From Methanobacteriota archaeon (GTDB lineage: Archaea; Thermoplasmatota; Poseidoniia; Poseidoniales; Thalassarchaeaceae): DNA of 64,000 bases. The notes below the pieces were generated by a model. It was not told the DNA's origin and ran no database searches. It saw nothing but the letters and a program-made list of their open reading frames with translations. The DNA is taken from assembly GCA_011523055.1 (NCBI GenBank), contig WTHQ01000019.1, positions 25,282-89,281 of the forward strand, written 5' to 3'. The number at the start of each line of letters is the position of its first letter. The stretch's first letter is position 1. Shown in pieces: positions 1,128 through 17,815 of the stretch. A program made the position numbers and the translations under genes.

Positions 1128-2144
1128 TCACGGAACTCCCTCTTCCATCCAGCGCCTCACAATGGGCAAGTCAGCTGGCAGCCAATTCAAAGAATCCAAT
1201 TCGCACCTCTCGAGCCATCTAGACATGTCATGCTCCTTGAGAACTATCAATGATGGGTCCACAACCCCACAGTCAACAACTCTGAGGACAACTAATCCAT
1301 CATCATAAATGTGGGAGACCTTAGCAACTTGTTTTTTTGCTGATACTGATATTGCAAGCTCCTCTAGCACCTCCCTCTCGACAGCATCAAGTGGACTTTC
1401 ATGCTCCTCGATTTTACCACCAGGGAACTCCCAGAACCCCGACCTCTTGTCTCCTGGTGGTCTCCTGCATGCTAGGACCCTCCCCAACTTATCCTTGATC
1501 AACGCTCCAACCACGTTCACAGTTGGGACCTGGGCTATCCCCCTAAGCAACTTGGTGACGAGGGTTGTTTGTCTTTGCAAAGGGATTCTCTCTATTGGTG
1601 GCAAATGGATGAACAAAATTGGTAACTTTATCTGGCTTTGTTCTCTCATCAGGAGTTCAGCGGAAAGGGTTCTGAAATATGCCTCATTGCAAACGAAGTT
1701 CCCGCAATCCGTGCTAAGCACCACATCATCGTGATCATCTGCAAACTCTCTCAGAAACTGCAGGTTGAAAGTAGTGTCAATGTATTCGTCAGCATCTCTC
1801 TGGATAGATGAGTCTCGCAACTGTCGTCCGGAATTATCTCGTGTCCTCATGTCAAGAATATTTTTCGCACGGATCTCGATGTTGATTTCGGTCCGATCCA
1901 TAGCAATGCCAAGCAATATCACTGCATCGAAATTGCCTGACAGGATGTCCTCCGCTGGCAACCGCGAGCCTCGTTCATCGACAGTTAGGATCTTCGAATG
2001 GATCGAGGCATTGACAGAATCTTCTGAACAGGACCTTGCGACATCCCAGGAATGGTTGGAATTCATTCCGTCGAATGGCTCGAAACCGGTAATCAGAACT
2101 CTTGCGTCCCCTTGACTCTTTGACAACAATAGCACCACGCACAA
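1128..2144 (-). CDS. pyroglutamyl-peptidase I (PCP) domain fused to a C-terminal NUDIX hydrolase domain
   Basis: N-terminal half: ITGFEPFDG...STDCGNFVCNEAYF...LFIHLPP, i.e. PCP-like Glu/Cys/His elements. C-terminal half carries a canonical NUDIX box GGKIEEHESPLDAVEREVLEELAI (Gx5Ex7REVxEELGI). Confidence 0.7.
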   Translation of the reverse strand: MCVVLLLSKSQGDARVLITGFEPFDGMNSNHSWDVARSCSEDSVNASIHSKILTVDERGSRLPAEDILSGNFDAVILLGIAMDRTEINIEIRAKNILDMRTRDNSGRQLRDSSIQRDADEYIDTTFNLQFLREFADDHDDVVLSTDCGNFVCNEAYFRTLSAELLMREQSQIKLPILFIHLPPIERIPLQRQTTLVTKLLRGIAQVPTVNVVGALIKDKLGRVLACRRPPGDKRSGFWEFPGGKIEEHESPLDAVEREVLEELAISVSAKKQVAKVSHIYDDGLVVLRVVDCGVVDPSLIVLKEHDMSRWLERCELDSLNWLPADLPIVRRWMEEGVP

Positions 2145-2520: not shown

Positions 2521-3093
2521 TCAAAAGTTCTCTGGAATTCTCATGGGGCTGAAAAGGTGGCCCGGACTTCTCGACTCCGATAGTTGGATTCGGATTAGCC
2601 TCTCCCAATCTCGTAACAAAGCCAACGCGGATGAGAAAGGAACCTCTACGGCGTTGATTGTGGTTCTCATCAGTGTATCTAGGATGTCCATCCTATCTTC
2701 ATCTAGCGATCCGAGTAGCCTGTCCAAAGGAAAGGAGTCTATCAGGGGCGACCTTGAATCGCCATCAAAGGGAGAGGGGGAGAGCAGGTGACTTGGTAGC
2801 CTTTCATCACTATCCTCGGCGACCCGCCGTAGCTCCTCGAGTAGGATCCTGATGTACTTGGAGACCACTAAGGCAACCTCAACCACTGGCATGTTGTATT
2901 GATTCACGAATGCTACCATGTTCTCCTGTATGAATAAGATCCTTTCACCCAGTGGATCTCGAGGATCGGGAATTTTCGATTTCTTGTCCAATGATGACAC
3001 CTCATGGCACTGTTCTGTCATCATACCTGATTGGGGAGCCCGAGTTACCACGGACTCCATCGAGCAAGTCATCCGCGATCTCGAACCTATCAT
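2521..3093 (-). CDS. hypothetical protein (190 aa; true start probably at an internal Met)
   Basis: ORF lies downstream of the giant gene on the same strand. Its first ~90 nt overlap the giant gene's 3' end, so a later start is likely. No motif recognised. Confidence 0.3.
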   Translation of the reverse strand: MIGSRSRMTCSMESVVTRAPQSGMMTEQCHEVSSLDKKSKIPDPRDPLGERILFIQENMVAFVNQYNMPVVEVALVVSKYIRILLEELRRVAEDSDERLPSHLLSPSPFDGDSRSPLIDSFPLDRLLGSLDEDRMDILDTLMRTTINAVEVPFSSALALLRDWERLIRIQLSESRSPGHLFSPMRIPENF

Positions 3094-6000
3094 TCAACCA
3101 ATCGCCGTCCGTATCCCAGTTAATCGGGCTCGTTCCCTCTGCTATTGAGTCCCCGTCAAAGTCTAGGAGCCACCAGCCGTATGGATACTCGCCTAAACCG
3201 GTATTGGGCAAGTGAAATTTGTCCCCAGCAAACCTTCCGAATGAATCGGTCCAGTTCCCGCTTAGTAGGACATTGTCATTGCTTGTGTCTATCTCCGTGT
3301 AGTCTTGATCGTTGTCATCAATCACAAGCGCATAGAGGGTGTCACTTTGGCTAATTCTGTTCATTCGGAGGTAATTCGTAGAGAGTGATACGCTGGATCC
3401 ACACAGCCCGAGGACCACCTCACGAAATTGCCATCCCTCCTGAACCTCATTCCCCCTGCAGTCGGTCAAGGGGGAAGCTCGGACTAGAGAGGGAGAAGAC
3501 AGGGATGCGTTCACAATTCCAAAATATTCTTGGAAATTGGTGTAGGGGACGTATTGGCAGCCTCCGAGGTTACACTCGAAATCACCATCTCTATCTGCAT
3601 CCCCTCCCACATCGGATGGGTCTGTTGGATCTAGAGTGAACCATGTCCAATTCAGTATCGGCCTGGAGATAGAGCCCCCATTGATGTTCACTGGCTTCCA
3701 ACTATTCGTGGATATTTGTTGCCAAACGACTTCGATTTGCATTAGTGATGACCAATTGTCATTGACCTCGTTCCAACCGAGGTGATACTCATAGAAATCA
3801 GGTAGCATGTCCCCATCCGTGTCGTTATCTAGTGGGTTTGTACCATACTTTAGCACCTCTCTGCCGTCAGAGAGGTTGAAATTTTGATTGTAGTTTGTAA
3901 CAGAACCGTCAATCGAAAACTCAGGCTGCATTAGAATTGAGTCTTGGTCCGTGTCATTTGATAGGGGTAATGTTCCGTTGTTGTATTCCATAAGGTTCGT
4001 GAACAACAAAGGCGTGGAGCCTGGGCTTATTTGCCCAGATGAGTTGAATGGTAGGAAGGTTCTGCTCTCCCAACTGCCTTGGACAGCGACATCATCCAAA
4101 CTGGTCCTGTCATACCAACCATCAGCGTCTGGGTCGTAGGAGCCGTCAAGGGGGTTCAATGGGTTGAGTGACCACCTCATCTGAGATTCTGGCAGTGGCA
4201 ACCACGTACCAAAGACAGAATAACAATACTCCCAACCATCCGGCAGCCCATCCATGTCGGAATCATCATCAGTGGGATCACTTATTCCAAGCAGGGTTTG
4301 ATTGAAGCTATCTGGGTCAAACTGGTTAATCAGTCCCATCCTCTCCAGGGACTGATCTGATTTGGTCGAAAAGGTTCTGTATAGGCTAGTTATCGCCTCC
4401 TCTTCTGAAAGCCCGTTCTCAAATTTCATCGCATTTATTGCATCCTTTGCGTAGGATACTGTCCCCATGCCTTGAGGAATAGTATCGATAGCGAGTAGCT
4501 TGCCATAGACCCTAGATTCATATTCAGCCAAATTGGTAAAGGACTCTGATGGAGATATCGTACCATCTCCATTGCAATCCCATGAGTCTTGGTCTGAGTC
4601 TCGATTCACATCCGTTGATGTTAATGGGTTGATTGACCATTGATTGGCCTCAAGGTCCCACTCAGTAAACCAATATTCGTATCCGTCACTCATACCGTCT
4701 CGGTCTGTGTCGGATTCACTTGGATCGGAAATTCCCAACAATGCACCCAACAAAGGCCTCACAAATCCTTCTGACTGCCAGTCGTTGAATTGAGAAATTG
4801 CGATGTGGGCCCTCCCCTGCTTGGTGAACAAAACCCTGTAAACCCTGTTCATTGATTCTAGTGCATCTAGTGACGTCGCCTCCTCGTAGAACCTGGGTGC
4901 ATCAGGAGGGGCAAGTGCGCCGTTCTCCGGGTTCGAATTCGTCAGGTTCAGTTCGACCAAGTCAGTCAGGCCATCGCGATCTGAATCAAACTGTCCATCA
5001 GACGGAACCAGTGGATTAAGAGTCCATGTTCCCTCTTCGTTATTCCATTTCGTGAAAATCATTTCTACCCCATCCAGCAGTCCGTCACCGTCTGTGTCTG
5101 GGTTGTTAGGATCGGCTGTGAGTGCACTATTGGGGTCCTTGGACCTCGCGGATTCTCCGAAAGACGCAGTTGAATCTGCGGTCAACCAAGGGGTTGGAAG
5201 CCAGTCCCCGCCGCTGTTTAGAAGGTAGAATTGAGGTGTGGTGATAAGTGAGTCGATCTCGCTCAGATTACCCTCTATAGAGTTGTACTCTTCCCAATTG
5301 GTCAGTCCGTCTCCATCTGGGTCTCCAACATCGTCATCCCCATTGACAGGATTCAGTGTCCACTTCTCCTCGAAGACGGACCATCTGGCGTGATATGCCT
5401 CCCAACCATCTGGCATCCCATCTGAGTCCGTGTCAGGGGAAACGGGGTTAGAGGCACCCACGTCTAGCTGTGTAATGTCAGTCAAGAGGCTGATAACCTC
5501 GGTGCTGGCTAGTTCTCCAAAGGACCCCTGTGGCTCGCTTATTTCGTCTGAGGAGTTGAACAGCCATGTCGTCAGATTCTCAGGGAGGCTCTCCGAGAAT
5601 GACCATGCCCCACCAACTAGAATTTCTGATCTCAGATGATATTCAAACCAATTGACAAATTCCTCCTCTTGGGATAGAATTCCGTCTCCGTTGACATCAT
5701 AGCCATCGCCATCTGGGTTTTCCATGGCATCAGACCCATTCAATGGGTTGATGCCTTGATTGTCGAGGTTCCAGGAACACGCATAGCGAGCCTCCCAACC
5801 ATCTGGCAGTGAGTCCCCGTCTGAATCAATGACATTAGGGTCTGTTGCAACCCAACTTAACGCGCTTGCTGACGACTCCCCATGAGTTATGAGTCCATTC
5901 TGTCTCACAGTCTCAAGCAAGACGGACCAGCGATACTCACAAGCGTTGGTGAGCCCATCACCGTCAGCGTCTTCATCTGCGTCGGTGGGATCGAGGGGGT

Positions 6001-8746
6001 CCAGTGTCCAGATGTTTCCGCCGGTATAGTCGTCGCCAATCCATCTTCTGTTCTTTATCTCCCACCCATCAGGCATGCCATCTCCGTCTGTGTCAGGGTT
6101 AGTCGGGTCGGTCGGGACGTCCGAGCCACCACCAGATCCGGAATTGAGCCACCCTGCTAGGTGAACTTGTCTGGCTAGTATGCCATCTGATTCATCGCAA
6201 ATTTGCTCAGGGACCCCTACACCGCCGGTTGAGAGGTAGTGGCATTGGAAGAGGGTAGAGTCGTAGAACCACCCCCAATACTCCTCCCCGTCCGACAACC
6301 CATCCCCGTCAGAATCGATCATTCGTGGGTCGGTGCCGTTGGATCCGTTCTCGGATGAGGAGACATAGCGATACTCATCCAAGTTTGTCCATTGGGCCTC
6401 AAATCCAAAGGGTCCTTCGACAATAAATCCGTCAATGTCCTCGTCTCGGGAGGAGTCAAACGGGTTCGTTGGATCAAGTCCGTGGTAGAATTCCCAGCCA
6501 TCGGGCATACCATCGTAGTCTGAGTCGCTTGAAGTTGGGTCCATTGGGTATATGTTCATGAATTTTCCAGGCTCTATTCCGGAGGCAAACCATCGTTGAC
6601 CGTCGGAAACCCATGAGGTTACATCTGAAATAGGCCCACTCACAGAAACTGGAGGGTCTATCATTCCTAATATCCCACTACCATCCCCCTCAAGTGCCCA
6701 CAGCCCGTCCCTGGAGCCAATAAGAAGCATGCCTGGGATCTGTTCCACAGAAAGGACATCGTTACCGCCGGACAACCAGGTATCGGGATTGAACATCCTG
6801 TCATTTGATATCGCAAACGTCGGTTCTAGAAAGAGGTCCTCTATGTCGATGAAATGTATCCCGGATGGAGTCCCGAGCCAGACTCCAGTGAGTTGGCCTA
6901 TCTCCCCATTGCTAGTCAATATCCCCGCTGGCTCGAGTACGTTGACGACGGACGACTTTGAGGAGTTGAGCAAGTCGGCTATCCCAACGAAGCTTTCAGC
7001 ATTCTCTTCGGTGTACACCCAAAGAGGTGAGCCAAAGGTCTCAGAAAGATCATTCGTTATCCAACGAATCAACCCGGAGTCAGTACCGACTAACAGGAGG
7101 GGGGTATCCCCCGGCCTATCCAGATGAAGGGATACAGTTCCTGTGGCGTTCCTCGAAGAAAGGATCTGTTCTAGAGCTTCCACTGCAGTGGGGCTCTCGA
7201 TGGTCAGTCTACCCTGGTCCGAATTAATTCTAGTAGTGTGTGCACCACCTTGGTTGCCGAGCAAGAGGAGTGCCCCGGGCCCCATCGAGGCTGATGTTGG
7301 ATTCACAGAGAGTATTGGATCAAATTCTAAGAAAAAGGAGGAGTCGAGATTCAATCCATCTTCGGTGAGGGGGAACGCACCAATGCCGAAGTTGGAGGAG
7401 AGTACCAACGCATTCGAGTCATCAGATAGGGTCAACAGGATTGAGTCGGTTATGGTGCCAGGCACAGGTTGTTGGAATGCTTGAGTTGTTTGGGAGATCG
7501 GGTCGAGAATAGTGACACTATTTCTGGAGGTGATAACTAGAGTTCCCAGGAGTTCAGAAACCTGTGTACTAACGATCGCCGAGTCAGAGATTGATGGCAC
7601 TGAGGTCTCAGTCAAAAATGAAGCTTCATCGGGCCTTTCTGATGAGCCGAGATACAAACCGGGCCGGACTGAGTAGCCATCATCTTCTGAAACTTGAAAT
7701 TCTTCATAATTACTCAGCGCTTCCCCCCACATGGATGTTGCGATGGAATTGTCAGGCGTGAGGAATCCGTCGCGGTTCGAATCCCAACCATCAAGATCCG
7801 TATCGACAATTGAGTCAGAGGCATTTCTGGGACTTAGGCCGTAATGATATTCCCAACCGTCTGATATTCCGTCTCCCGGTACAGCCAGAGGGGTCGGAAC
7901 GCCCTCAACGATAGCGTATGAGTCTGAGTCTGGATATCTTGGATCGCTCCCCAACCAACCAGGAATTCCAGTCTCAGTCTCGACTGTTGTTTGGCATGCT
8001 CCAACGGTTATTCCAGGGATTGGACCTTGACACCATAACCCGTCCCTCTCGTCGAGCCAGCCATTTGGTTGCGTGTACCTGTATTCCTCGGAGCTGGTGA
8101 AGCGCTCCCCAGGCTCTAGTACTCCATCTCTGTCAAAATCGTAGCCATCTCCGCAGCCCCAATCCAACAGCCCAATGCATTGGTCTGGATCTTCGATCGC
8201 ATCTCTTGGGTCAAGAGGGTCAAAATAGAGGCAAACCCAGGCGGTTGATGCTTGATCTATGTATCCAGCACCTCCGTCCGTACACATACTAATTTCGTAT
8301 CCATCAGGTAGTCCGTCCCCATCTGTGTCTGATTTCCTTGGATCAAGATACTCTCTGAACCCACTGTCTGTCTCCTCTGGCGATTTCCCAGTCAATGATA
8401 GTCGAGTGGAGAAGCAGGCCTCCAAGCTGTATGGCCAGCAGAATTCCTGGAGGGCGGTGGCTCCGTCCCGATCGTGGTCGCTGAGGTTGTCAGTAGAGTC
8501 TAGAGGATCCAGGCCGAGCACTATGAATTCTTCTTCTATCGTAGGAATTCCGATCGCGGAAGAGAATGCACTTTCGTGAACGTCGGGTATCTGATCTTCG
8601 TCAGTATCGACGGCTACCGGGGCCCCTCCAGTGGCCTCTTCCGGATTTACTGTTCCTACGGGGCTCTGCGGTCTTGTTTGTGATAGGAAAAGGACGCTTG
8701 AAAGCATGATTATTGCGAGAAATGCCGCAGTCTGTTTCCTCCGCAT
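3002..8746 (-). CDS. giant secreted calcium-binding repeat protein (1914 aa) with ~18 bacterial-type thrombospondin type-3-like repeats
   Basis: N-terminal signal peptide MRRKQTAAFLAIIMLSSVLFLSQT. Recurrent motif [DN]PxxxD[TS]DxDG[LM]xDGxE, for example DSDTDGDGLPDGYE, NPDTDGDGMPDGWE, DPNNPDTDGDGLLDGVE, DPTDDDSDMDGLPDGWEY. Trp/Tyr-rich spacers between repeats. Confidence 0.85.
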   Translation of the reverse strand: MRRKQTAAFLAIIMLSSVLFLSQTRPQSPVGTVNPEEATGGAPVAVDTDEDQIPDVHESAFSSAIGIPTIEEEFIVLGLDPLDSTDNLSDHDRDGATALQEFCWPYSLEACFSTRLSLTGKSPEETDSGFREYLDPRKSDTDGDGLPDGYEISMCTDGGAGYIDQASTAWVCLYFDPLDPRDAIEDPDQCIGLLDWGCGDGYDFDRDGVLEPGERFTSSEEYRYTQPNGWLDERDGLWCQGPIPGITVGACQTTVETETGIPGWLGSDPRYPDSDSYAIVEGVPTPLAVPGDGISDGWEYHYGLSPRNASDSIVDTDLDGWDSNRDGFLTPDNSIATSMWGEALSNYEEFQVSEDDGYSVRPGLYLGSSERPDEASFLTETSVPSISDSAIVSTQVSELLGTLVITSRNSVTILDPISQTTQAFQQPVPGTITDSILLTLSDDSNALVLSSNFGIGAFPLTEDGLNLDSSFFLEFDPILSVNPTSASMGPGALLLLGNQGGAHTTRINSDQGRLTIESPTAVEALEQILSSRNATGTVSLHLDRPGDTPLLLVGTDSGLIRWITNDLSETFGSPLWVYTEENAESFVGIADLLNSSKSSVVNVLEPAGILTSNGEIGQLTGVWLGTPSGIHFIDIEDLFLEPTFAISNDRMFNPDTWLSGGNDVLSVEQIPGMLLIGSRDGLWALEGDGSGILGMIDPPVSVSGPISDVTSWVSDGQRWFASGIEPGKFMNIYPMDPTSSDSDYDGMPDGWEFYHGLDPTNPFDSSRDEDIDGFIVEGPFGFEAQWTNLDEYRYVSSSENGSNGTDPRMIDSDGDGLSDGEEYWGWFYDSTLFQCHYLSTGGVGVPEQICDESDGILARQVHLAGWLNSGSGGGSDVPTDPTNPDTDGDGMPDGWEIKNRRWIGDDYTGGNIWTLDPLDPTDADEDADGDGLTNACEYRWSVLLETVRQNGLITHGESSASALSWVATDPNVIDSDGDSLPDGWEARYACSWNLDNQGINPLNGSDAMENPDGDGYDVNGDGILSQEEEFVNWFEYHLRSEILVGGAWSFSESLPENLTTWLFNSSDEISEPQGSFGELASTEVISLLTDITQLDVGASNPVSPDTDSDGMPDGWEAYHARWSVFEEKWTLNPVNGDDDVGDPDGDGLTNWEEYNSIEGNLSEIDSLITTPQFYLLNSGGDWLPTPWLTADSTASFGESARSKDPNSALTADPNNPDTDGDGLLDGVEMIFTKWNNEEGTWTLNPLVPSDGQFDSDRDGLTDLVELNLTNSNPENGALAPPDAPRFYEEATSLDALESMNRVYRVLFTKQGRAHIAISQFNDWQSEGFVRPLLGALLGISDPSESDTDRDGMSDGYEYWFTEWDLEANQWSINPLTSTDVNRDSDQDSWDCNGDGTISPSESFTNLAEYESRVYGKLLAIDTIPQGMGTVSYAKDAINAMKFENGLSEEEAITSLYRTFSTKSDQSLERMGLINQFDPDSFNQTLLGISDPTDDDSDMDGLPDGWEYCYSVFGTWLPLPESQMRWSLNPLNPLDGSYDPDADGWYDRTSLDDVAVQGSWESRTFLPFNSSGQISPGSTPLLFTNLMEYNNGTLPLSNDTDQDSILMQPEFSIDGSVTNYNQNFNLSDGREVLKYGTNPLDNDTDGDMLPDFYEYHLGWNEVNDNWSSLMQIEVVWQQISTNSWKPVNINGGSISRPILNWTWFTLDPTDPSDVGGDADRDGDFECNLGGCQYVPYTNFQEYFGIVNASLSSPSLVRASPLTDCRGNEVQEGWQFREVVLGLCGSSVSLSTNYLRMNRISQSDTLYALVIDDNDQDYTEIDTSNDNVLLSGNWTDSFGRFAGDKFHLPNTGLGEYPYGWWLLDFDGDSIAEGTSPINWDTDGDWLNDRFEIADDLLDGVRGNSGSPIRYDDRTVP

Positions 8747-9697: not shown

Positions 9698-12223
9698 CTA
9701 TCGCCCCATCAGTGCTCTATGCACTGAATTTTGGATTTCTTTCATCCGTTTGTGGGCCCCAATGTCCTTGAAAACTGACAAGGACCTTTGGAGGTAGGCT
9801 ACTCTCTCGGATCTGTCGCTTCCTATGGCCCCGAGGCGGGCGAGGATCTCTGCCTGTAGGAGCCTGAAGTCGTTCGCCTCGGCTATGGATAGTGCGTCTA
9901 GGTAATGCTCAGAGGCCTCACTGGTTCTACCGACATCAACAAGAACCTGGCCTAGAAGCATCTCTGTCTCCACCGCATTAGTTGGGTTTGCATCCTCAGA
10001 AAATGTTTCTAGTGCCGCATTGTAATGCAATAAAGACAGCTCCACGTCCTTGGACTTTGCATAGAACCTCCCCAGGATGGCCCTGGATCGGGCATGCAGT
10101 TGCTGTTTATCCAATTCCAACGTCAAATCGTGGGCGCTCATTGCATGTTTCCTCGCCTTCTCGGATTCTCCGATTTCTAGGAAGCCATCAGCCAGCCTTA
10201 GTTGTGCTGAGATCAATTCCCTTTGGTCCTCGACCTCTAGCATCTCCTCTACGTTTTGGTACACCTCCCTGGCTCTTCGATCGTCTCTCCTTTGTCTGAA
10301 AATGGCCCCCATGCTGATGTACGAGTCCGCAGCGCCCCTTGCATCCTTGGTCTTGATCTGGAGGCTGAGCGCCTGCCTCAGCGTTTCCAGCGCATCATCA
10401 AGAGCCCCACGCTTGACCTCAAGGTCTGCGCGTGTGGAAAGTATTCTCGACATCGACTTTGAGTCCTTGATTCGCCTTGTTATGGATGTGGCTGAGTCTA
10501 GCTCCTTCTCCGCTTCGTCCCAGTTGCCCTGTATCAGCAGAATCTCCCCTGACAGCTCATGTACCAATGCTTGGGTTTTAGCCTCAAGGGCATCACCTTC
10601 TATGCCTCTCAGAATGCCAAGCAATTCAGTGTGGCCACCTCGCACGAGATCCAGTCCGTGGCCCTCCAATACGTGAGCTAGGGCCTCGAGGTCCCCGGAC
10701 ATGCTGAGGTGGTGAAGGTGTTCTATCCTGTCCTCCGTAGTAACAGATTGTTTCCCGTACCATTCAGCTGCAGATTTGTGCAGGTCTCTTCGAATTTGCT
10801 CATCCATTGACCTTGATGAGAATTCTCTAACGAGGTCGTGAACGTCCAGTTCGTCTTGGTTTGCCCTCCGCGCAAGCCCACCCTCGATAAGGCTCTCAAT
10901 GGCATCTTGCGAGGTCGGCCTCGGGAGGGCTTCGGAGGGTATTGGCTCCCTGAAAACGCTAATTGCCCCTAGAATGTTCTTCTCTTCTGAGGTCAGTTTG
11001 CTGAAGATCTCCTTCTCGACGAAGGCTTCGAGAGTGGTGTGGACTGACCCTGTGAAGTTGCCCCTATTGATGAGTTCGAGTACTAGGGGGTGCCCCCTGG
11101 AGAGGGCGTATATGTGGGAGAATCCAGGGTCGTCGATGGTTGACATGGAGCTCAGTAGTTTCCTGCTGGCACTTCGATCCAGTCCCTCAAGCCTGAGGTA
11201 GGTTGAGACTGTTCGGCCCCTTGGGTCGAATTCCGGCAGCAGCCTCCTGAATGATCTGGTGAACAGCACCATTCCAGCCTCACCACACTCATCTATCCTT
11301 TCAGACACTGACACAAGGATTGTGACCAGGGCCTCGTCGCTTATTTTGTGGACGTCGTCAATCACAACGAGTGATGGATTCTTCCTCATCCCCTCGATGA
11401 TTATGTTGGAGCAAATCGAGGGGTTCGGAGTCTGGGCTCCTTCCAGATAGTCCGAGAGTTCCATTTGACCCATAAGGCCCAGCCACTCCCCCATCGCCTC
11501 CAGGAATGAGCGTGAGCCGTCCCTCTCCTGGCATCGGTGGAAAAGTAGGTTCCTACGGTGCGTGAAGCGTTCAATGACCTTTGCTGCAAGTGCGGTCTTA
11601 CCTATGCCCGCGATCCCTGGGACGACGATCGACGTTGAGGCTTCTTCCAGCAGGTTCGCGATTTTGTCTAGCTCAGCCTCCCTCCCAAAGAATTTCCTAA
11701 CACGGGGCAAGTCCGCCAAAGATGATGAGAATTGTCTTTCGATATGCTTTGTGAGGTCCCTCTCTATGAGTTCCGAGTTCAAGCTCGTTAGATCAATCGT
11801 AGCATCATCGTCCATGTACCTGAGTACGTCAACGTGTCGGAGATCTATGTCGGACTTAGACACCAGCTCAGATATCGATAGCTCCTGGATCATACCACCT
11901 GATTGGATGGTTTTCACCAATTTACCGGACACCGATTCCCAGACCTCGTCGGATAGTGAGACCCCCTCGTCTGTCAGAAAGTATGCTTTCCTCTTCCTGG
12001 TGACCCCTGTGATGTGAGCTTGTCTTTCGATGACATGGCCGGATTCCTTCAGTGAGCCTATCGCCCGTGGAACGTTTGATCTTGCAATCGAGACAGCGTT
12101 TGCAATTCCCATCTGTGATAGGGCGAAGGGAACCTCGACCCTATCGCGGTAGTCGGCGTAGTCCCTTAGGTGGAGGAGTATGCGGATTTGAACGCCAGGT
12201 CGTGATGTGTTGTGACGAGGCAT
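9698..12223 (-). CDS. STAND-type signal-transduction NTPase: N-terminal winged-helix DNA-binding domain, AAA/NB-ARC-like ATPase, C-terminal TPR array
   Basis: wHTH-like N-terminus (VQIRILLHLRDY...GIANAVSIARSNVPRAIGSLKESGHV). FFGREAELDKI followed by Walker A VVPGIAGIGKTALAAKV. Walker B-like LVVIDDVH. C-terminal ~350 aa of TPR-like helical repeats. Confidence 0.8.
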   Translation of the reverse strand: MPRHNTSRPGVQIRILLHLRDYADYRDRVEVPFALSQMGIANAVSIARSNVPRAIGSLKESGHVIERQAHITGVTRKRKAYFLTDEGVSLSDEVWESVSGKLVKTIQSGGMIQELSISELVSKSDIDLRHVDVLRYMDDDATIDLTSLNSELIERDLTKHIERQFSSSLADLPRVRKFFGREAELDKIANLLEEASTSIVVPGIAGIGKTALAAKVIERFTHRRNLLFHRCQERDGSRSFLEAMGEWLGLMGQMELSDYLEGAQTPNPSICSNIIIEGMRKNPSLVVIDDVHKISDEALVTILVSVSERIDECGEAGMVLFTRSFRRLLPEFDPRGRTVSTYLRLEGLDRSASRKLLSSMSTIDDPGFSHIYALSRGHPLVLELINRGNFTGSVHTTLEAFVEKEIFSKLTSEEKNILGAISVFREPIPSEALPRPTSQDAIESLIEGGLARRANQDELDVHDLVREFSSRSMDEQIRRDLHKSAAEWYGKQSVTTEDRIEHLHHLSMSGDLEALAHVLEGHGLDLVRGGHTELLGILRGIEGDALEAKTQALVHELSGEILLIQGNWDEAEKELDSATSITRRIKDSKSMSRILSTRADLEVKRGALDDALETLRQALSLQIKTKDARGAADSYISMGAIFRQRRDDRRAREVYQNVEEMLEVEDQRELISAQLRLADGFLEIGESEKARKHAMSAHDLTLELDKQQLHARSRAILGRFYAKSKDVELSLLHYNAALETFSEDANPTNAVETEMLLGQVLVDVGRTSEASEHYLDALSIAEANDFRLLQAEILARLGAIGSDRSERVAYLQRSLSVFKDIGAHKRMKEIQNSVHRALMGR

Positions 12224-12285: not shown

Positions 12286-15200
12286 TTAGGCTTGGTCCTC
12301 TGGGACCCATTCCCCTGCTTCGACGTCCCACAACCAACCAGGGTTCTCAGCATCCTTGATGAATCTCTGATCCTGTGAAGCTGTATGGTCATCAATCAAG
12401 TCGCCACCATCGAACTCAACGAATCTCGCTCCAAGCGCGCCGAGGGCCGCGAGCACCAGCAACAGTGCACCTATCAATCCCCATGGGAGGCTCCCATCAT
12501 CGTCGGATCCATCTGATATCTGTGCCCCTTCTATCGGGTCTCCAATGCCCATGGTGAATTGTGGGGTGACTGTCCCGACGATCCTGTTTGCCGGTATGAT
12601 GAGGTTCCAAGTGCTATCCTCCTTGACCACTGTTGAATTTGCAGGGTTGGTGTCGATGTAAGCCGTGACTGACCTACCAGGTATGCCAGTGCCCTGGAAT
12701 AGTATGCCCGTGTCGCCCGGCCCGAGAGTACTGGTTTCCGGCTCGTTGACTGAAAAGATAGTTGGGATTACAATGAAGTCAACGGGATCAGATTGGACCT
12801 TTGAACCAAACACGTCTTGTGCGATGAAGACAACGTTCTCCATGTTCCATTCCGACATGTCCGTTGTGTAGAAGGCCATCACGTCCGGATCATATGTAGC
12901 GATGCCACTTGAGTCGATCCTGATTCCAATGGCATGTTGATCATCGATGACTGCCATTATTATGTCCTGATCAGGGTCGGGATCTGAGAAGTGATTGGTC
13001 AGGTCGATGGTTATCGAAGTGCATCGGTCGAGCAGATCAAGGTTTTCGGCATCGCAATAGAGGGTGAATTCCTGCTGCCAGCCCTCGCTGTCGAAAATAG
13101 GACGGTTGTTTCCTCTGTTCGGGGGGTTGTCAGCAATGAACTCTATTTGGTCCCACTGCGAGTGACCAATTCCATCGAAGCTCCGTGCATGTATCGTGTA
13201 AGGTCGATCATGCTGTAGATTCCGGGAGTCCCATGATGTCGACCAATAATCTCCTTGGATTTCGGATCCTGTCAAGGTGATCGTGTCCACAACGATTCCG
13301 TCTATTGGGTCCCTGATTTCTATATCTATCCTGTTTACCTCTCCGTCAGGGTCCTGAGCGACTCCTGAAATCAGACTATTTTCTGATGCTGTTACGTATG
13401 AGCCATCAACTGGCTCCGATAGTTGCAATAGAGGTTTCCTGTTCTCATTATCGATTGTTAAAGTCAAAACCTGTGGATTGCACTCGTCAACGATGCCCAG
13501 ACAGAAGTCTGAGTCAGATGCCCAGATGGTAAAGGTGTAGTCATCTGAGGTTCTTGGCAGTGCTGCGTAACTCCATTCATACGTCCATGCGTTTCCAGTC
13601 CAAACAGCATCTGCGGGTGTGTCACTGTAGTACCCATCCCCCTCGATTATGAAATAGATGTCTTGAATATCGGAACCACAACTCAGAGGGCACCCATAGT
13701 CATCAGTTGCGATCCCTGAGAAGGTTATTTTTTTGTCTTCAATTCTGTGGGTTGTTGAGTCAGCTGGTTCTGAGACTGTTATCGATGGTGGTTGAGTGTT
13801 GAGTTTTACCGTCTTGGATACAATCTCGCTGTAATCGAGGCCGTCGAAGGACCGTATCTCGAACACATAGTCATCCTCCGGATACTCCGACATGTCCAAT
13901 GAGTATTCCCATGTCCTGAACGGATGATTTGTTCCAGTGACCTCTCCTGGCCCCATTCCAGACGTGTCAATGGCGGTGCCGGCATTCTCCCATGCCCCAG
14001 TAAATGGATCCTTCACCTCGACCCTGTGCACGTAACCCTTCTGTGCCCACCTAGACTCTTCCGCGGACGGGTAGACTCCGATCCACTCTCCGTCCCATGC
14101 TGTGCCTGTGATCGTGACTATTCTCTTGAAGGACGTGTCACTTGATTCATCCAGACTTATTGAGGGAGCGTCATTTTCCAGCGTCACCGTTCCCTCGTAG
14201 GTGGACTCTGGGAGAAGGAAGTCATACTGATAGTAACCTGACCCGAATTTGTACCCTGTTACGAAGTACTTTGACATCTCACGGCTACCAGTAGAGTAGT
14301 CACAGGAGTCATCCTGCGTGTCATAGAGGAGGTCGCCATCGTTGTCTATCCCATCCGAGCAAGAGTCCTCATACTCGTCATCTGCGAAGCCGTCTGGGTT
14401 GTCCCCTCCTTGCAGACCCCTGAAGTCGAGATGTGAGTTTGATGGTAGCGCGATCCATGGCGTCCTTCCGTCCTCGAGCGTCTCAAGGGAGTAGAGGTCA
14501 TTGCCCACTCCATCCTCGACTAGTATGTTCGCCCCAGGCACGGCCGTGCCATCTACTATGGCTTGGAACCTTACCATCTCCGCGCGCTTCACCTGTACAG
14601 AGTAGAATGTCGGCTGGGTCGCGATTTGAATCTTGGAGAGGTCCAAGTTCGCGACGTTGGAGAAAGTGAACACAGTGGAGTTGTTATCCATATTCAACGC
14701 CAATGGGAAGTCAAGGGGAGTGTAGTCGGGGCAGATAGCGCAGCTCGTTGTTTGATGAGGCACTATATTTGTGTCCCAGTCCCCATCCGGATTACCATCG
14801 TTGTCGTTGTCTACGACTCCCGGCCATGCTTCTTGATCGTCCCATGAGAGCTTGACCGGCACTTCCCCAGCAGGGGCGTCTGGAATTGTTTCCGATTGGA
14901 CCGTGACCGATGATTTCGTCACATTGTAGGTGCTAGTGACCCCGTTCCATAGATTCTCGGTGAAATATGCAAGTGTGCCATATTGTTGAGCTCCAGCGGC
15001 ACCCGTGTCAAAGTTCTGGAGGACAGCACCCTGAGAATTTAGGTTCCAGGTGTTCCTCTGGACATTGAGCAACGCCCCCGTTGCCCTGATTCCGTCGGCG
15101 GACCCGCTTGCGGTGAAGACGTTATCGACAAGTGTCGCACCTGCCCTGTGAACCATCACGACCGGACACGTAAACTCCCCGTCCCAGTGCGTATTGGACT

Positions 15201-16533
15201 GGCATGTGCCGGTCCCGAGGCTTGAGACCTGGTTGTTTGCGAAGTACAGCCTTCTGACATCGGGGTTATCGCCGACCCAATAGTCTCCGGCAATCACTGG
15301 CTCCCTTGCAGTGTCGCTGATCGTGTTGTTCTGTGCGTCTACGTCGAATGAGCCTATGAGCCAGAGCCCATTCCAACCACCAATCGGCCCGATGTCATTT
15401 CCGTGTATAGTCGCACGACTGGACTGGATGGCGATTCCCGAGCCACTCGCTGCCCCGCTGAGGTCATTTTCATGGATCTCGGCTAGAGATCCCGCATAGG
15501 CGGTTATCGGAGTGCCGTCTGCGGTTGTGATGACATTATTGGAAACGTTGGTCGGGTACTCATTCGAGCCGATGGTAATCATTCCGTTTATGTCCACGCC
15601 ATTGCAATTTACGTTGATTGTGGAATCCGTGACCTTACCGGCTGAGGACCTGTAGCTGAGCCCGAAATCTCCACTGATGACGTTTATGTTTCTGAAGTCT
15701 GCGAATGATTCTTCGACCCAAACCGCTGATCGGCCGTTATCCTGATTTCGACACCCTCTCTCAGTGGATATGAAATCGGAGTTCTCGAAGGTGATGGGGA
15801 TGCTTCCTGTGCCTCCCCCATAAATCTGGACAGCGTTCCCTGTGACTCCACTCTGCTCATCATTTCCAACTGTGTAGGTGCCACCAACGAATCTTGGTTG
15901 GGCGAGCTCCGTTGCTAGTACGCTTGAGGTGTTGGTGTCCGTGAACTGGAGCTCCACCAATTCAGGGGATGCCCCCTGGAGCACTAGGGCCCCATAACGG
16001 AATTGGTTCACCGTGGGAACTGGAAATGGGACGCCCCATGCCGACTCGATATCGAGGAACTGAAGTACAGTCTCAGACAGATCTATTGTACTGCGGATGA
16101 TTATGCCCTCGCCACATGAAGGGTCCTCGATACCAAGGGTGGATGTTCCATAGGACATACCATCGCAGTCCCCCTTGGCGGACGCGTTGGATGGATCTAG
16201 CCAGGTCATCGATATGCGACTGGAGGCAGAGGCGTCCTGGGAAGCCCCGCAAGATGCCGCGCCGACGCAGAGATTCCCACGGGCCTCCAATGAGGTTCCA
16301 TTGGAGAATGTGACTTCAGTGGATGGCTCGATTATCAATTTTGCACCAGGTGAGATGATTATGTCACCGCTGACGGTATGCGACCCAGACCATGTCTCTA
16401 TTGAGTTGATGTAGCCTGAGCTGGTTGTATTCTGGGCGGACACTGAGGAAGCGGGGCCTACCAATGCAGCCAATGTTGAAAGTAGTAGAATGGTCACCAG
16501 CGCTCTGCTCTTCAATCCGGCCAACTCGCCCAT
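12286..16533 (-). CDS. giant cell-surface protein (~1415 aa): right-handed parallel beta-helix region, acidic DNDGD-type calcium-binding motifs, multiple Ig-like domains, C-terminal TM anchor
   Basis: Start chosen at the internal Met MGELAGLKSRALVTILLLSTLAALVGPASSVSAQ (signal peptide); the annotated ORF extends to 16752. PbH1-like repeats (NNVITTADG...IHGNDIG...NNTISDT...). DNDNDGNPDGDWD and IDNDGDLLYD motifs. C-terminal LPWGLIGALLLVLAALGALGA helix. Confidence 0.85.
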   Translation of the reverse strand: MGELAGLKSRALVTILLLSTLAALVGPASSVSAQNTTSSGYINSIETWSGSHTVSGDIIISPGAKLIIEPSTEVTFSNGTSLEARGNLCVGAASCGASQDASASSRISMTWLDPSNASAKGDCDGMSYGTSTLGIEDPSCGEGIIIRSTIDLSETVLQFLDIESAWGVPFPVPTVNQFRYGALVLQGASPELVELQFTDTNTSSVLATELAQPRFVGGTYTVGNDEQSGVTGNAVQIYGGGTGSIPITFENSDFISTERGCRNQDNGRSAVWVEESFADFRNINVISGDFGLSYRSSAGKVTDSTINVNCNGVDINGMITIGSNEYPTNVSNNVITTADGTPITAYAGSLAEIHENDLSGAASGSGIAIQSSRATIHGNDIGPIGGWNGLWLIGSFDVDAQNNTISDTAREPVIAGDYWVGDNPDVRRLYFANNQVSSLGTGTCQSNTHWDGEFTCPVVMVHRAGATLVDNVFTASGSADGIRATGALLNVQRNTWNLNSQGAVLQNFDTGAAGAQQYGTLAYFTENLWNGVTSTYNVTKSSVTVQSETIPDAPAGEVPVKLSWDDQEAWPGVVDNDNDGNPDGDWDTNIVPHQTTSCAICPDYTPLDFPLALNMDNNSTVFTFSNVANLDLSKIQIATQPTFYSVQVKRAEMVRFQAIVDGTAVPGANILVEDGVGNDLYSLETLEDGRTPWIALPSNSHLDFRGLQGGDNPDGFADDEYEDSCSDGIDNDGDLLYDTQDDSCDYSTGSREMSKYFVTGYKFGSGYYQYDFLLPESTYEGTVTLENDAPSISLDESSDTSFKRIVTITGTAWDGEWIGVYPSAEESRWAQKGYVHRVEVKDPFTGAWENAGTAIDTSGMGPGEVTGTNHPFRTWEYSLDMSEYPEDDYVFEIRSFDGLDYSEIVSKTVKLNTQPPSITVSEPADSTTHRIEDKKITFSGIATDDYGCPLSCGSDIQDIYFIIEGDGYYSDTPADAVWTGNAWTYEWSYAALPRTSDDYTFTIWASDSDFCLGIVDECNPQVLTLTIDNENRKPLLQLSEPVDGSYVTASENSLISGVAQDPDGEVNRIDIEIRDPIDGIVVDTITLTGSEIQGDYWSTSWDSRNLQHDRPYTIHARSFDGIGHSQWDQIEFIADNPPNRGNNRPIFDSEGWQQEFTLYCDAENLDLLDRCTSITIDLTNHFSDPDPDQDIIMAVIDDQHAIGIRIDSSGIATYDPDVMAFYTTDMSEWNMENVVFIAQDVFGSKVQSDPVDFIVIPTIFSVNEPETSTLGPGDTGILFQGTGIPGRSVTAYIDTNPANSTVVKEDSTWNLIIPANRIVGTVTPQFTMGIGDPIEGAQISDGSDDDGSLPWGLIGALLLVLAALGALGARFVEFDGGDLIDDHTASQDQRFIKDAENPGWLWDVEAGEWVPEDQA

Positions 16534-16582
16534 GCTTGCACTCGGCGTGTCAACAGATATAACCCTAGGCGGGATATGGGAG

Positions 16583-17815
16583 TCACCAGTTGTCTGCGGA
16601 GGCCTCGATGGCATCTCGCCATGCCACAGCATCAAGCATGCCATATCCTGATCTCGGATCGTGGCCGATCTGGTCTTTCGTTTGTTTTGCGCTCTCGGCA
16701 AGTGCCCTCTTGAAATGATGAATGCGGTCCTCATCGTAATCCTCGAGGTCAAGAAGGTCTTTTTCAGAGAGATCCTGGAGGATCAATGACAAGGTAGCGG
16801 TGACAAACATGGTAGCGTCACTTGTACCGGTTGAATATGCATAGGGTGGAGATTTCTCACTGGAAACGGTGGATAGAATGTAGGACCCAGGGGCTAGGAT
16901 CTCAGGCTTTTGGTTCGGCCAGACTCTAACTGACTCAGTGTATGGGTCGAAGTCCGAACCGATTGAGGTGTTTGACCAAGGCGTCAGAAACCTGTCATAC
17001 GCACCGACGCTGATGACTCCCTCTACGTTTGCGGGCGTTGATACGTCTAGATTGTTCGGTCCGGCGTTGCCCGCCGCGGCAACGACGAAGATCCCACTAT
17101 CAAGTGCATCGTTGACTGCGGTGGAAACGGATCTCGATGCTTGTTGGGAAGATGCCTCGAATGGGCCGCCCAGTGACAAGCTGATAATGTTCACCTGTTG
17201 AGAAACACGGCACCACTGGATGGCATCTGCAACTCTGATGCTATTGCCGGTGGTGCCCTCTGGACCTAGGCCGACCGCTATGCTTAGTGTCACACCCTTT
17301 GCCATGCCGCTCAATGGGCCAGATCCGTTCGAGACGAGCAACCCGGCCATGGCGGTGCCATGGTGAGATTGGCTAACGTCCCTAACCGAATCATGCTGAA
17401 ATGCGTAAAAGTCCCTGAATCCAACTAGATTCATTTTTTGGAGATCGGGGTGCGAGGCATCTATCCCCGTGTCGACTATGCATACTTTGATCCCGCTTCC
17501 GTCCAATCCCTCATTGGCTAGGTCCCTCACTCCTGAGGACTCATATGCCCAGTCCGAGGCAGGGAGGTACGGGGTCAATAATGGTTGGATCATCGGCCAG
17601 AGCAGCATCATAACGATCATTGTCGCGGCCCCCCCGACCGCACCATATGGCCATACGAAGGTGGAGATTGAGGTCATCGGCCTCCGAAGGTCCCTGGCCT
17701 CGAGGTCAGAGAGGCCATAGGCCTCCCCAGGATACCCTTCCGCCTCTTTGTCGACCGCTGTCAGGATGGCACGGTCCCCCGGTTCTGGCATCAACTCGAC
17801 GCCATCGCCAGGCAC
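16583..17815 (-). CDS. subtilisin-like serine protease (peptidase S8) with N-terminal TM segment
   Basis: Catalytic Asp VCIVDTGID, His HGTAMAGL, Ser GTSDATMFVTA. N-terminal hydrophobic helix GAVGGAATMIVMMLLWPMIQPLL. Alternative start at MTSIS possible. Confidence 0.85.
   Translation of the reverse strand: MPGDGVELMPEPGDRAILTAVDKEAEGYPGEAYGLSDLEARDLRRPMTSISTFVWPYGAVGGAATMIVMMLLWPMIQPLLTPYLPASDWAYESSGVRDLANEGLDGSGIKVCIVDTGIDASHPDLQKMNLVGFRDFYAFQHDSVRDVSQSHHGTAMAGLLVSNGSGPLSGMAKGVTLSIAVGLGPEGTTGNSIRVADAIQWCRVSQQVNIISLSLGGPFEASSQQASRSVSTAVNDALDSGIFVVAAAGNAGPNNLDVSTPANVEGVISVGAYDRFLTPWSNTSIGSDFDPYTESVRVWPNQKPEILAPGSYILSTVSSEKSPPYAYSTGTSDATMFVTATLSLILQDLSEKDLLDLEDYDEDRIHHFKRALAESAKQTKDQIGHDPRSGYGMLDAVAWRDAIEASADNW

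Follow-up and report, generated by a model that had tools for sequence, protein, structure and literature searches.

A 1914-residue, predicted surface protein of Poseidoniales joins thrombospondin type 3-like calcium-loop modules to a divergent beta-propeller

The 64,000-nucleotide stretch of DNA analysed here (the window: positions 25,282 to 89,281, forward strand, of contig WTHQ01000019.1, assembly GCA_011523055.1) comes from an archaeon of the Thalassarchaeaceae, order Poseidoniales, and carries on its minus strand the gene for a protein of 1914 amino acids (aa) in which repeats of the thrombospondin type 3 (TSP3) kind, rich in putative calcium loops, lie on both sides of a divergent seven-bladed beta-propeller. 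In the reading that we favour, for which the chances seem to us evenly balanced, the product is an exported cell-surface receptor or adhesin built on a Ca2+ scaffold with a variable propeller. The general idea is already in the literature, as an annotation category only: the "widespread thrombospondin genes" that Rinke et al. described from Poseidoniales were interpreted by them as genes for adhesion (PMC6461757), and Orsi et al. noted hypothetical proteins of Marine Group II (MGII) with calcium-dependent adhesion domains (PMC4511931). What is new is the combination of a TSP3-type Ca2+-loop scaffold with a Reg_prop-like propeller, fixed across an uncultured and globally abundant archaeal order; no account of the family was found in the literature, nor of its propeller, the structure of its modules or its synteny. 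Marine Group II is described as the most abundant planktonic archaea of surface oceans and is uncultured (PMC6461757, PMC6864105), and no description of its cell surface was found in the literature. Nor did the literature and databases searched give a function for the 1914-aa protein: the named homologues among those listed are all called "hypothetical protein", and the gene goes unmentioned in one metatranscriptome paper.

The open reading frame (ORF) that an earlier note, made from the letters of this DNA, had placed at 3002-8746 is confirmed by the ORF list and the translation: it runs uninterrupted on the minus strand from an ATG start to a TGA stop. The product, of 209 kDa, is strongly acidic (Asp 11.2%, Lys 0.9%, pI 4.05, net charge about -256). 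Its main parts are the following.

3002..8746, minus strand: complete gene for the acidic, predicted exported protein of 1914 aa, with its TGA stop at 3004..3002.
8681..8746, minus strand: putative N-terminal export signal, aa 1-22 (MRRKQTAAFLAIIMLSSVLFLS), from hydrophobicity, AlphaFold2 (AF2) and conservation.
7667..8614, minus strand: N-terminal Ca-loop region, aa 45-360, with three two-loop modules (loop listing, AF2, conservation).
6557..7666, minus strand: seven-bladed beta-propeller of the Reg_prop (two-component regulator propeller) type, aa ~361-730 (AF2, Foldseek, profiles).
3167..6556, minus strand: C-terminal Ca-loop region, aa 731-1860, with about eight two-loop modules and variable inserts between them (loops, self-derived hidden Markov model (HMM), BLAST).
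3005..3166, minus strand: C-terminal tail, aa 1861-1914, with two loops (DFDGDS and DTDGDWLNDRFE) (column identity, invariant columns).

That the repeats are of the bacterial TSP3 type, as the earlier note proposed, is well supported: TSP3_bac (PF18884), the single Pfam family to match the protein, does so with 48.1 bits (E 1e-12) over five stretches, well above its gathering cutoff of 25 bits, and matches of this family are precomputed for several orthologues too. The motifs far exceed the chance level set by 2000 composition-preserving shuffles, with 8 occurrences of D.D.DG..DG.E (shuffle mean 0.00), 13 of D.D.D...D..E (0.02) and 22 of D.[DN].[DN]G (0.58), and 11 of the 12 Ca-loop motifs found in the whole window fall inside this ORF. 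An iterated self-HMM recovered 16-17 copies of the 21-aa repeat x-[DN]-P-x3-D-[ST]-D-x-D-G-[ML]-P-D-G-[WY]-E, so that the earlier count of about 18 was a fair one. When all loops were listed with their context they proved to be paired: a strong loop (...DTDGDGMPDGWE) is followed 27-63 aa later, mostly 37-43, by a second loop that opens with W-[TS]-L-[ND]-P and closes with N-x-x-E-Y. The W-x-L-NPL motif, previously taken for the start of aromatic linkers, is therefore the opening of a second, more degenerate Ca loop, and the strong repeats are spaced 70-149 aa apart rather than 60-120. In BLAST of module against module the unit spans ~55-95 aa, with copies 30-50% identical and E values down to 6e-18, and whole-protein self-BLAST returned the identity match only. 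Judged by these alignments, the true repeat unit is a two-loop module of ~60 aa, present in about 11 copies, of which the best example is this one.

5930..6115, minus strand: two-loop module, aa 878-939 (PTDPTNPDTDGDGMPDGWE...WTLDPLDPTDADEDADGDGLTNACEYR) (self-HMM, BLAST, AF2).

Its two halves match the self-HMM at aa 878-898 (E 6e-14) and 917-939 (E 1.5e-9), alignment with the modules at aa 1098 and 1210 gives 50% identity over 58-60 aa, and its block pLDDT (predicted local distance difference test) in the AF2 model is 79-89. No Pfam match to the Ca2+ repeats of the RTX, cadherin or Calx-beta types was found in the protein. At the DNA level, where the earlier note had suggested comparing the repeats for signs of recent duplication, none is visible: Tandem Repeats Finder detected no tandem repeat in the gene, and the best direct repeats reach an identity of 60-74% over ~50 nt, which makes the repeats ancient. 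A recent tandem duplication is excluded, since there is no repeat at the DNA level and the loops keep their positions in homologues down to 42% identity.

The earlier note had also described the protein as built almost entirely of repeats, and in doing so missed the propeller at aa ~361-730, a region with no Ca loops at all, as well as helical and beta inserts farther on. AF2 of aa 1-760, run with an alignment of 53 sequences, gave a pLDDT of 87.9 and a predicted TM score (pTM) of 0.76, with aa 363-724 modelled as an all-beta propeller at pLDDT ~90-97. Foldseek against the PDB aligned this domain, at probability 1.00 in each case, with WD40-like propellers (~1e-8) and with the sensor propellers of BT4663 and BT4673 (6e-8 to 7e-7), and the family profile had 4a2l (BT4663) as its sole match among PDB sequences (E 2.4e-8). 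An exhaustive search of a library of 1.84 billion proteins with the domain profile gave 25 matches below 1e-30, those listed being orthologues and their fragments, and about 1100 below 1e-10; five of the seven non-orthologous matches scanned are Reg_prop proteins. PorZ_N_b_propeller matches 3 of 13 family members. The protein itself has no direct match to Pfam Reg_prop (PF07494), phmmer with the whole protein against PDB sequences found nothing, and a word-index homology search with the propeller alone returned orthologue fragments only. On the AF2 fold, the Foldseek matches, the profile match to BT4663 and the Reg_prop proteins in the library, we regard aa ~361-730 as a divergent Reg_prop-type propeller. 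The central domain thus resembles BT4663/BT4673 by sequence profile and fold, and PorZ weakly through PorZ_N_b_propeller. In the Bacteroides hybrid two-component sensors BT4663/BT4673 the propellers are extracytoplasmic, and their PDB entry titles assign them to glycan-sensing (heparin / heparan sulphate) systems; the window protein differs in having a single propeller, without Y_Y_Y, kinase or other signalling domain, and any binding of a ligand by it is suggested by analogy.

Members of the family vary little in length. A first search for homologues yielded 290 proteins; among the 120 listed, 116 are 1880-2050 aa long and 42-100% identical, and the named sources were Candidatus Thalassarchaeaceae, Poseidoniaceae and "Euryarchaeota" metagenome-assembled genomes (MAGs). 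In a search for loci, with one genome per GTDB species, the best 80 loci taken all carry a gene of the 1914-aa type, in Poseidoniales MAGs except for two evidently mis-binned contigs, and the full-length gene occurs in MAGs of both Poseidoniales families. Among 117 aligned orthologues (1884-2039 aa, median 1908), all 28 DxDxD loops keep D, N, E or S at positions 1, 3 and 5 in at least 99% of the sequences, and by this measure purifying selection appears to act on the Ca loops. Eighteen Cys are conserved in the same alignment, and the less conserved ones share their values in pairs (0.72 for both 190 and 198, 0.65 for both 1763 and 1782); such pairwise loss at equal conservation is the pattern that disulfide partners would show. 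Column identity is highest of all regions in the C-terminal tail (0.82), 0.66-0.78 in the Ca-loop regions and lowest in the propeller (0.48), the other regions from aa 45 on ranging over 0.62-0.82. Against L010, a representative genome of Marine Group IIb (MGIIb) used as reference for the comparison of rates, identity is 60-65% in the Ca-loop regions and 34% in the propeller, and for the neighbouring genes it is 63% (metallo-beta-lactamase (MBL) fold), 56% (STAND NTPase) and 41% (Peptidase_C15-NUDIX). From these identities and the column values, the scaffold is held as tightly as the enzymes, and the propeller diverges at about twice the pace of the rest. The two contigs set apart above, L043 (CAXRAI010000019.1) and L066 (JAOMAZ010000002.1), contain the full Poseidoniales locus and are filed under "Salinimicrobium sp." and "Deltaproteobacteria bacterium", labels that probably reflect binning or sorting contamination in public assemblies. 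A database cluster representative (P0001), reported as 100% identical to the window protein, shows two differences, S/G at aa 1108 and S/Y at aa 1789.

Outside the propeller, the N-terminal region (aa 45-360) has loops at aa 47/90, 140/203 and 315/322, plus a degenerate one near aa 291, and four conserved Cys pairs (103/111, 155/172, 190/198 and 239/251); the ligand positions of the loops are 100% conserved and the Cys are kept pairwise. Regular secondary structure is very scarce in its AF2 model at a pLDDT of ~85-95, which is what would be expected of loops organised by ions. In the C-terminal region, strong loops lie at aa 741, 811, 885, 974, 1105, 1217, 1346, 1495 and 1642 and partner loops at aa 768, 926, 1010/1017, 1142, 1254, 1383/1390, 1538, 1598 and 1716, and three inserts were recognised in the AF2 model of this half.

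4736..4891, minus strand: helical insert 1, aa ~1286-1337 (AF2 helices, residues 552-603 of the C-terminal model, block pLDDT ~69-81).
4292..4534, minus strand: helical insert 2, aa ~1405-1485 (AF2 helices, residues 671-751 of the C-terminal model, block pLDDT ~70-85).
3548..3751, minus strand: beta-rich subdomain, aa ~1666-1733 (AF2 strands, residues 932-999 of the C-terminal model, block pLDDT 83-91).

The Cys pair 1725/1730 lies inside the beta-rich subdomain, with a conservation of 0.97-0.98. The C-terminal tail carries the terminal motif DG-x-RG-x-x-SP-x-RYD-x-R, and a hydrophobicity scan found no transmembrane segment in it.

The earlier note's further statement, that the protein has a signal peptide and no obvious anchor, is likewise supported. 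The only hydrophobic segment is aa 4-25 (the only 19-aa Kyte-Doolittle window above 1.5), AF2 places a helix at aa 2-22 followed by a low-confidence linker, and the segment ends in ...FLSQ, with S22 and Q23 at least 90% conserved; in the other predicted exported proteins of the window, the hydrophobic N-terminal segment ends in ...SAQ, ...VAQ or ...QAQ. By these features the segment is probably a cleavable Sec signal peptide, cut near S22/Q23, with an uncleaved signal-anchor as a possible alternative. A type IV pilin-like signal is rejected, there being no [KR]-[GA] cleavage context ahead of the hydrophobic stretch. Since the sole hydrophobic segment is N-terminal, the protein would be left without an anchor after the predicted cleavage: the C-terminus (...SPIRYDDRTVP) has neither a transmembrane anchor nor a PGF-CTERM-type sorting signal, and an archaeosortase substrate is rejected for want of a C-terminal transmembrane segment. 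Four N-x-S/T sequons are 100% conserved. Given the TSP3_bac match, the signal-like segment, the 18 paired Cys, the acidity (pI 4.05) and the lack of a C-terminal anchor, scaffold or adhesin, the class first suggested for the protein, remains the most reasonable one.

We envisage the receptor or adhesin as follows. A Sec-type signal would lead to export of a highly acidic cell-surface glycoprotein, and seawater Ca2+ (about 10 mM) would fill the 28 conserved DxDxD loops, arranged in about 11 TSP3_bac-type two-loop modules. The bound Ca2+, together with about nine predicted disulfides, may turn stretches almost devoid of regular secondary structure into a stiff, protease-resistant scaffold presenting the seven-bladed, faster-evolving propeller, which is probably the functional head of the protein and would be its likely ligand-recognition domain. 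By analogy with the Bacteroides sensor propellers, the ligand would most plausibly be a glycan or another surface polymer. Retention at the surface would probably be non-covalent, for instance through a C-terminally anchored protein of ~1800 aa encoded downstream in many lineages, and the C-terminal tail, the most conserved element, is a good candidate for the interface of attachment to a membrane-anchored partner. The neighbourhood, with an STT3/AglB fusion, an S8 protease and an anchored beta-helix protein, is surface-related and supports this reading.

Several observations weigh on the other side. No conserved polar pocket is present in the propeller, whose invariant residues are mostly the Gly, Trp, His and Pro of blade motifs, and a single conserved ligand is therefore unlikely; its fast divergence may just as well stem from relaxed constraint or from evasion of viruses. 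Sequons are not enriched (21 against 17 expected). The AF2 model of the C-terminal 1180 aa is only moderate (pLDDT 71, pTM 0.41), and a Foldseek search with it matched none of the solved structures in the PDB (best E 3.1). It is from the sequence that we infer Ca2+ binding, disulfides, glycosylation and signal cleavage. Finally, a gene that belongs to the core and keeps its length would suit a structural role in the envelope no less well than that of an adhesin.

That last point leads to the main competing explanation, which we consider unlikely overall but worth keeping in sight, namely that the protein is the outer, anchorless component of an S-layer-like coat, held by a partner with a C-terminal transmembrane anchor, with Ca2+ bridging acidic loops within and between subunits. 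Occurrence in both Poseidoniales families at a constant length and with the same flanking genes, Ca-loop regions conserved like the neighbouring enzymes, the want of an anchor of its own, the nearby STT3/AglB glycosyltransferase fusion and S8 protease, and a C-terminal tail more conserved than any other region (0.82), as expected for an assembly or attachment interface, would all suit such a component. So would the protein of ~1800 aa (1770-1807 aa) that Marine Group IIa (MGIIa) and some MGIIb encode on the same strand about 35-130 nt downstream of the giant gene, between it and a small acidic protein (L003 15876..21299; L005 15886..21204; many of L027-L084), and which has an N-terminal signal-like segment, a C-terminal transmembrane helix, a Trp-rich cytoplasmic tail and no Pfam domain. 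The arrangement recalls Sulfolobus SlaA/SlaB, where the gene of a large anchorless outer protein likewise lies beside that of a membrane-anchored partner, as it does here at MGIIa and some MGIIb loci; there is, though, no relationship in sequence or fold, and a lattice would be hypothetical in the present case. The partner is moreover absent from the window, where tblastn with the MGIIa protein found none, and from many MGIIb loci; the ~1800-aa gene is lost in the window's lineage. The window protein matches no S-layer family in Pfam or NCBIfam, its sequons show no enrichment, and no description of the Poseidoniales cell envelope was found in the literature. That the 1914-aa protein and the downstream anchored protein together form the main S-layer-like envelope protein of Marine Group II is a stronger claim, and a rather doubtful one. 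If it were true, the coat would be Ca2+-bridged and made from TSP3-type loops instead of the usual Ig-like or beta-sandwich domains, and the propeller would be the face exposed to viruses and grazers and a prime candidate for the receptor of Poseidoniales viruses.

There is a small chance that the protein is instead released as a free extracellular matrix or aggregation factor, and that Ca2+ serves to cross-link it with acidic polysaccharides or other cells. It has no anchor after the predicted cleavage, its net charge is extreme and its Ca sites are many, and the literature ties "thrombospondin genes" of Poseidoniales to aggregation and adhesion (PMC6461757, PMC8821943). Yet the loss of a 209-kDa protein to the open seawater would be costly for a small planktonic cell, and the strongly conserved C-terminal tail and conserved gene partners suggest specific attachment from protein to protein.

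Very improbable, in our judgement, is a docking scaffold for secreted enzymes, comparable in its logic to a cellulosome, with exo-peptidases (the nearby S8 subtilase, for example) recruited by EF-hand- or dockerin-like loops or by the propeller. Such an idea draws on three second loops that fit the canonical 12-residue EF-hand pattern D-x-[DN]-x-D-G-x-[ILV]-x-x-x-E, which dockerins use too.

8105..8140, minus strand: EF-hand-pattern loop, aa 203-214 (DFDRDGVLEPGE), with D1, D3, D5, G6, a hydrophobic residue at 8 and E12 (sequence).
5663..5698, minus strand: EF-hand-pattern loop, aa 1017-1028 (DVNGDGILSQEE), immediately behind the DGDG loop at aa 1010 (sequence, conservation).
4544..4579, minus strand: EF-hand-pattern loop, aa 1390-1401 (DCNGDGTISPSE), immediately behind the DSDQDS loop at aa 1383 (sequence, conservation).

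Each of them is followed by the short helix motif N-x-x-E-Y, and in the first, positions 1, 3 and 5 and G6 are 100% conserved. An S8 protease gene does belong to the conserved neighbourhood, and these archaea are thought to degrade extracellular protein (PMC6336850). The loops, however, stand singly inside TSP3-type modules and are neither paired helix-loop-helix units nor duplicated dockerin segments; no EF-hand or dockerin match was found by Pfam at E<=1, nor any cohesin HMM match, and no partner with a matching module was identified.

Orthology with eukaryotic thrombospondin/COMP or with CglD of Myxococcus xanthus can practically be dismissed, for although the DxDxDG loops with putative disulfides resemble the type 3 "wire" and NCBIfam gives weak local matches to CglD (NF033765, 44.7 bits, in the repeat region only) and MtsD (16.3 bits), the CglD score lies far below the equivalog cutoff of 400 bits and Pfam finds no TSP_3 (PF02412) or TSP_C at E<=1 and no VWA. 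In the thrombospondin/COMP wire, consecutive Asp-rich Ca2+ loops are stapled by disulfides, with almost no regular secondary structure, beside a globular beta domain. The N-terminal model of the window protein likewise combines high pLDDT with little secondary structure, but it adjoins a beta-propeller and not an L-type lectin domain, and its unit is a two-loop module of ~60 aa. Thrombospondin/COMP orthology is effectively refuted by the missing TSP_3 and TSP_C matches, by PDB sequence searches with the protein or the family profile that returned no thrombospondin/COMP chain, and by the C-terminal Foldseek search, which gave nothing. CglD is the nearest characterised prokaryotic protein of TSP3 type, a surface protein with disulfides whose role in adhesion and traction depends on Ca2+, which makes it a precedent for a prokaryotic TSP3/COMP-like, Ca2+-dependent surface adhesin (bioRxiv 10.1101/2023.10.19.562135). 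Common to the two proteins is the short acidic D-x-D-x-D-G repeat, which Pfam matches in both with PF18884. CglD is a bacterial lipoprotein of 1130 aa with a VWA/MIDAS domain and EGF-like modules, whereas the window protein is archaeal, 1914 aa long, carries a Reg_prop-like propeller instead and has no lipoprotein signal, its first Cys being at aa 103 with none near the N-terminus. An orthologue of CglD is accordingly rejected on the score and the lack of a Pfam VWA match.

With the receptor or adhesin reading preferred, one large, order-wide surface protein is now defined by a domain map, 28 candidate Ca2+ sites and a variable head domain. It offers a concrete target for metaproteomics, for labelling with antibodies or coupled to fluorescence in situ hybridisation, for virus-receptor studies and for tests of attachment to particles or cells, and its significance would rise substantially should it turn out to form the main envelope protein of these archaea or to serve viruses as a receptor. 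The loose label of "thrombospondin gene" used in comparative genomics is also corrected, since only the short Ca-loop repeat is common to this protein and the thrombospondins.

The earlier note had placed the gene in a divergent unit separate from the other giant genes. This does not hold: the order from the STT3 giant to Peptidase_C15-NUDIX is conserved at one MGIIb locus and mostly kept at MGIIa loci as well. The neighbours in question are these.

17836..27210, minus strand: 3124-aa STT3/AglB fusion (PF02516, E 1.5e-14).
12286..16752, minus strand: 1488-aa beta-helix/Big_7 protein with a signal-like segment and a C-terminal transmembrane helix at aa 1419-1449.
9698..12223, minus strand: 841-aa STAND-type NTPase (AAA_16/NB-ARC) with N-terminal helix-turn-helix and C-terminal tetratricopeptide repeats (TPR), at the same position in both Poseidoniales families.
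2521..3000, minus strand: downstream acidic protein of ~150-160 aa, ending in ...PGHLFSP-x-x-IPENF (start codons, synteny).
1128..2144, minus strand: 338-aa fusion of Peptidase_C15 (pyroglutamyl peptidase) and NUDIX, kept in the neighbourhood across the order.
L003 5204..8984 and L005 5010..8775: three extra genes of MGIIa between the STAND NTPase and the MBL gene, absent from the window.

The locus, whose gene order is common to both Poseidoniales families, begins with the STT3/AglB-fused giant (seen at the MGIIb locus L001/L002, MGIIa loci starting downstream of it), followed by the S8 subtilase (seen only at L001/L002), the beta-helix/Big_7 protein with its C-terminal transmembrane helix and the STAND NTPase-TPR protein. 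The three extra genes come next in MGIIa only, two of them with archaeal type IV pilin-like N-termini (DUF7289, Pilin_N), and then the divergent MBL-fold gene upstream of the 1914-aa-type gene, the ~1800-aa protein in MGIIa and some MGIIb, the acidic protein of ~150 aa and, farther on, Peptidase_C15-NUDIX. Across the 79 loci scanned, the giant has the MBL gene on one side and the small protein on the other in practically all that have enough sequence. The GC content of the 1914-aa gene (~0.50) equals that of the remaining window, and the genes around include archaeal housekeeping ones (CDP-archaeol synthase, aRF1, ArgRS, carbamoyl-phosphate synthase); a horizontally acquired island is rejected on the GC content and the order-wide synteny. 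Taken with the named homologues, these neighbours mark the window as part of the chromosome of an MGIIb-like archaeon of Marine Group II.

The small acidic protein is probably an operon partner of the giant. Its ORF can start with GTG at 3000, 1 nt past the giant's stop, or with in-frame ATGs at 3024/3021 that would overlap the giant, and a start adjoining or overlapping that stop suggests co-transcription. Counterparts lie at L001 15766..16236 and L003 21310..21762, with the general ending PG-x-LFSP-x-x-IPE-x-F, directly 3' of the giant gene or, where present, of the ~1800-aa gene. No Pfam domain and no hydrophobic (signal or transmembrane) segment were found in it; its homologues all come from marine metagenomes, the named ones from Poseidoniales or "Euryarchaeota".

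At the other end of the locus, the STT3 giant is an unusually large AglB fusion, with an N-terminal multi-pass oligosaccharyltransferase domain (about 13-17 hydrophobic segments in aa 13-740), an extracellular region of ~2300 aa with CarboxypepD_reg domains, and a C-terminal transmembrane helix; L001 has a counterpart of 3171 aa in the same place. The 1488-aa beta-helix protein (12286..16752) has a short Trp-rich tail (...PGWLWDVEAGEWVPEDQA), which may loosely resemble that of the ~1800-aa protein of MGIIa. Elsewhere in the window, 33655..36378 on the plus strand encodes a 907-aa protein matching the CD36 family (PF01130, E 3.8e-10, 39.3 bits against a cutoff of 26.5), in which a single hydrophobic segment near either terminus (aa 15-39 and 876-901) gives the CD36-like topology; such a protein is unusual in an archaeon.

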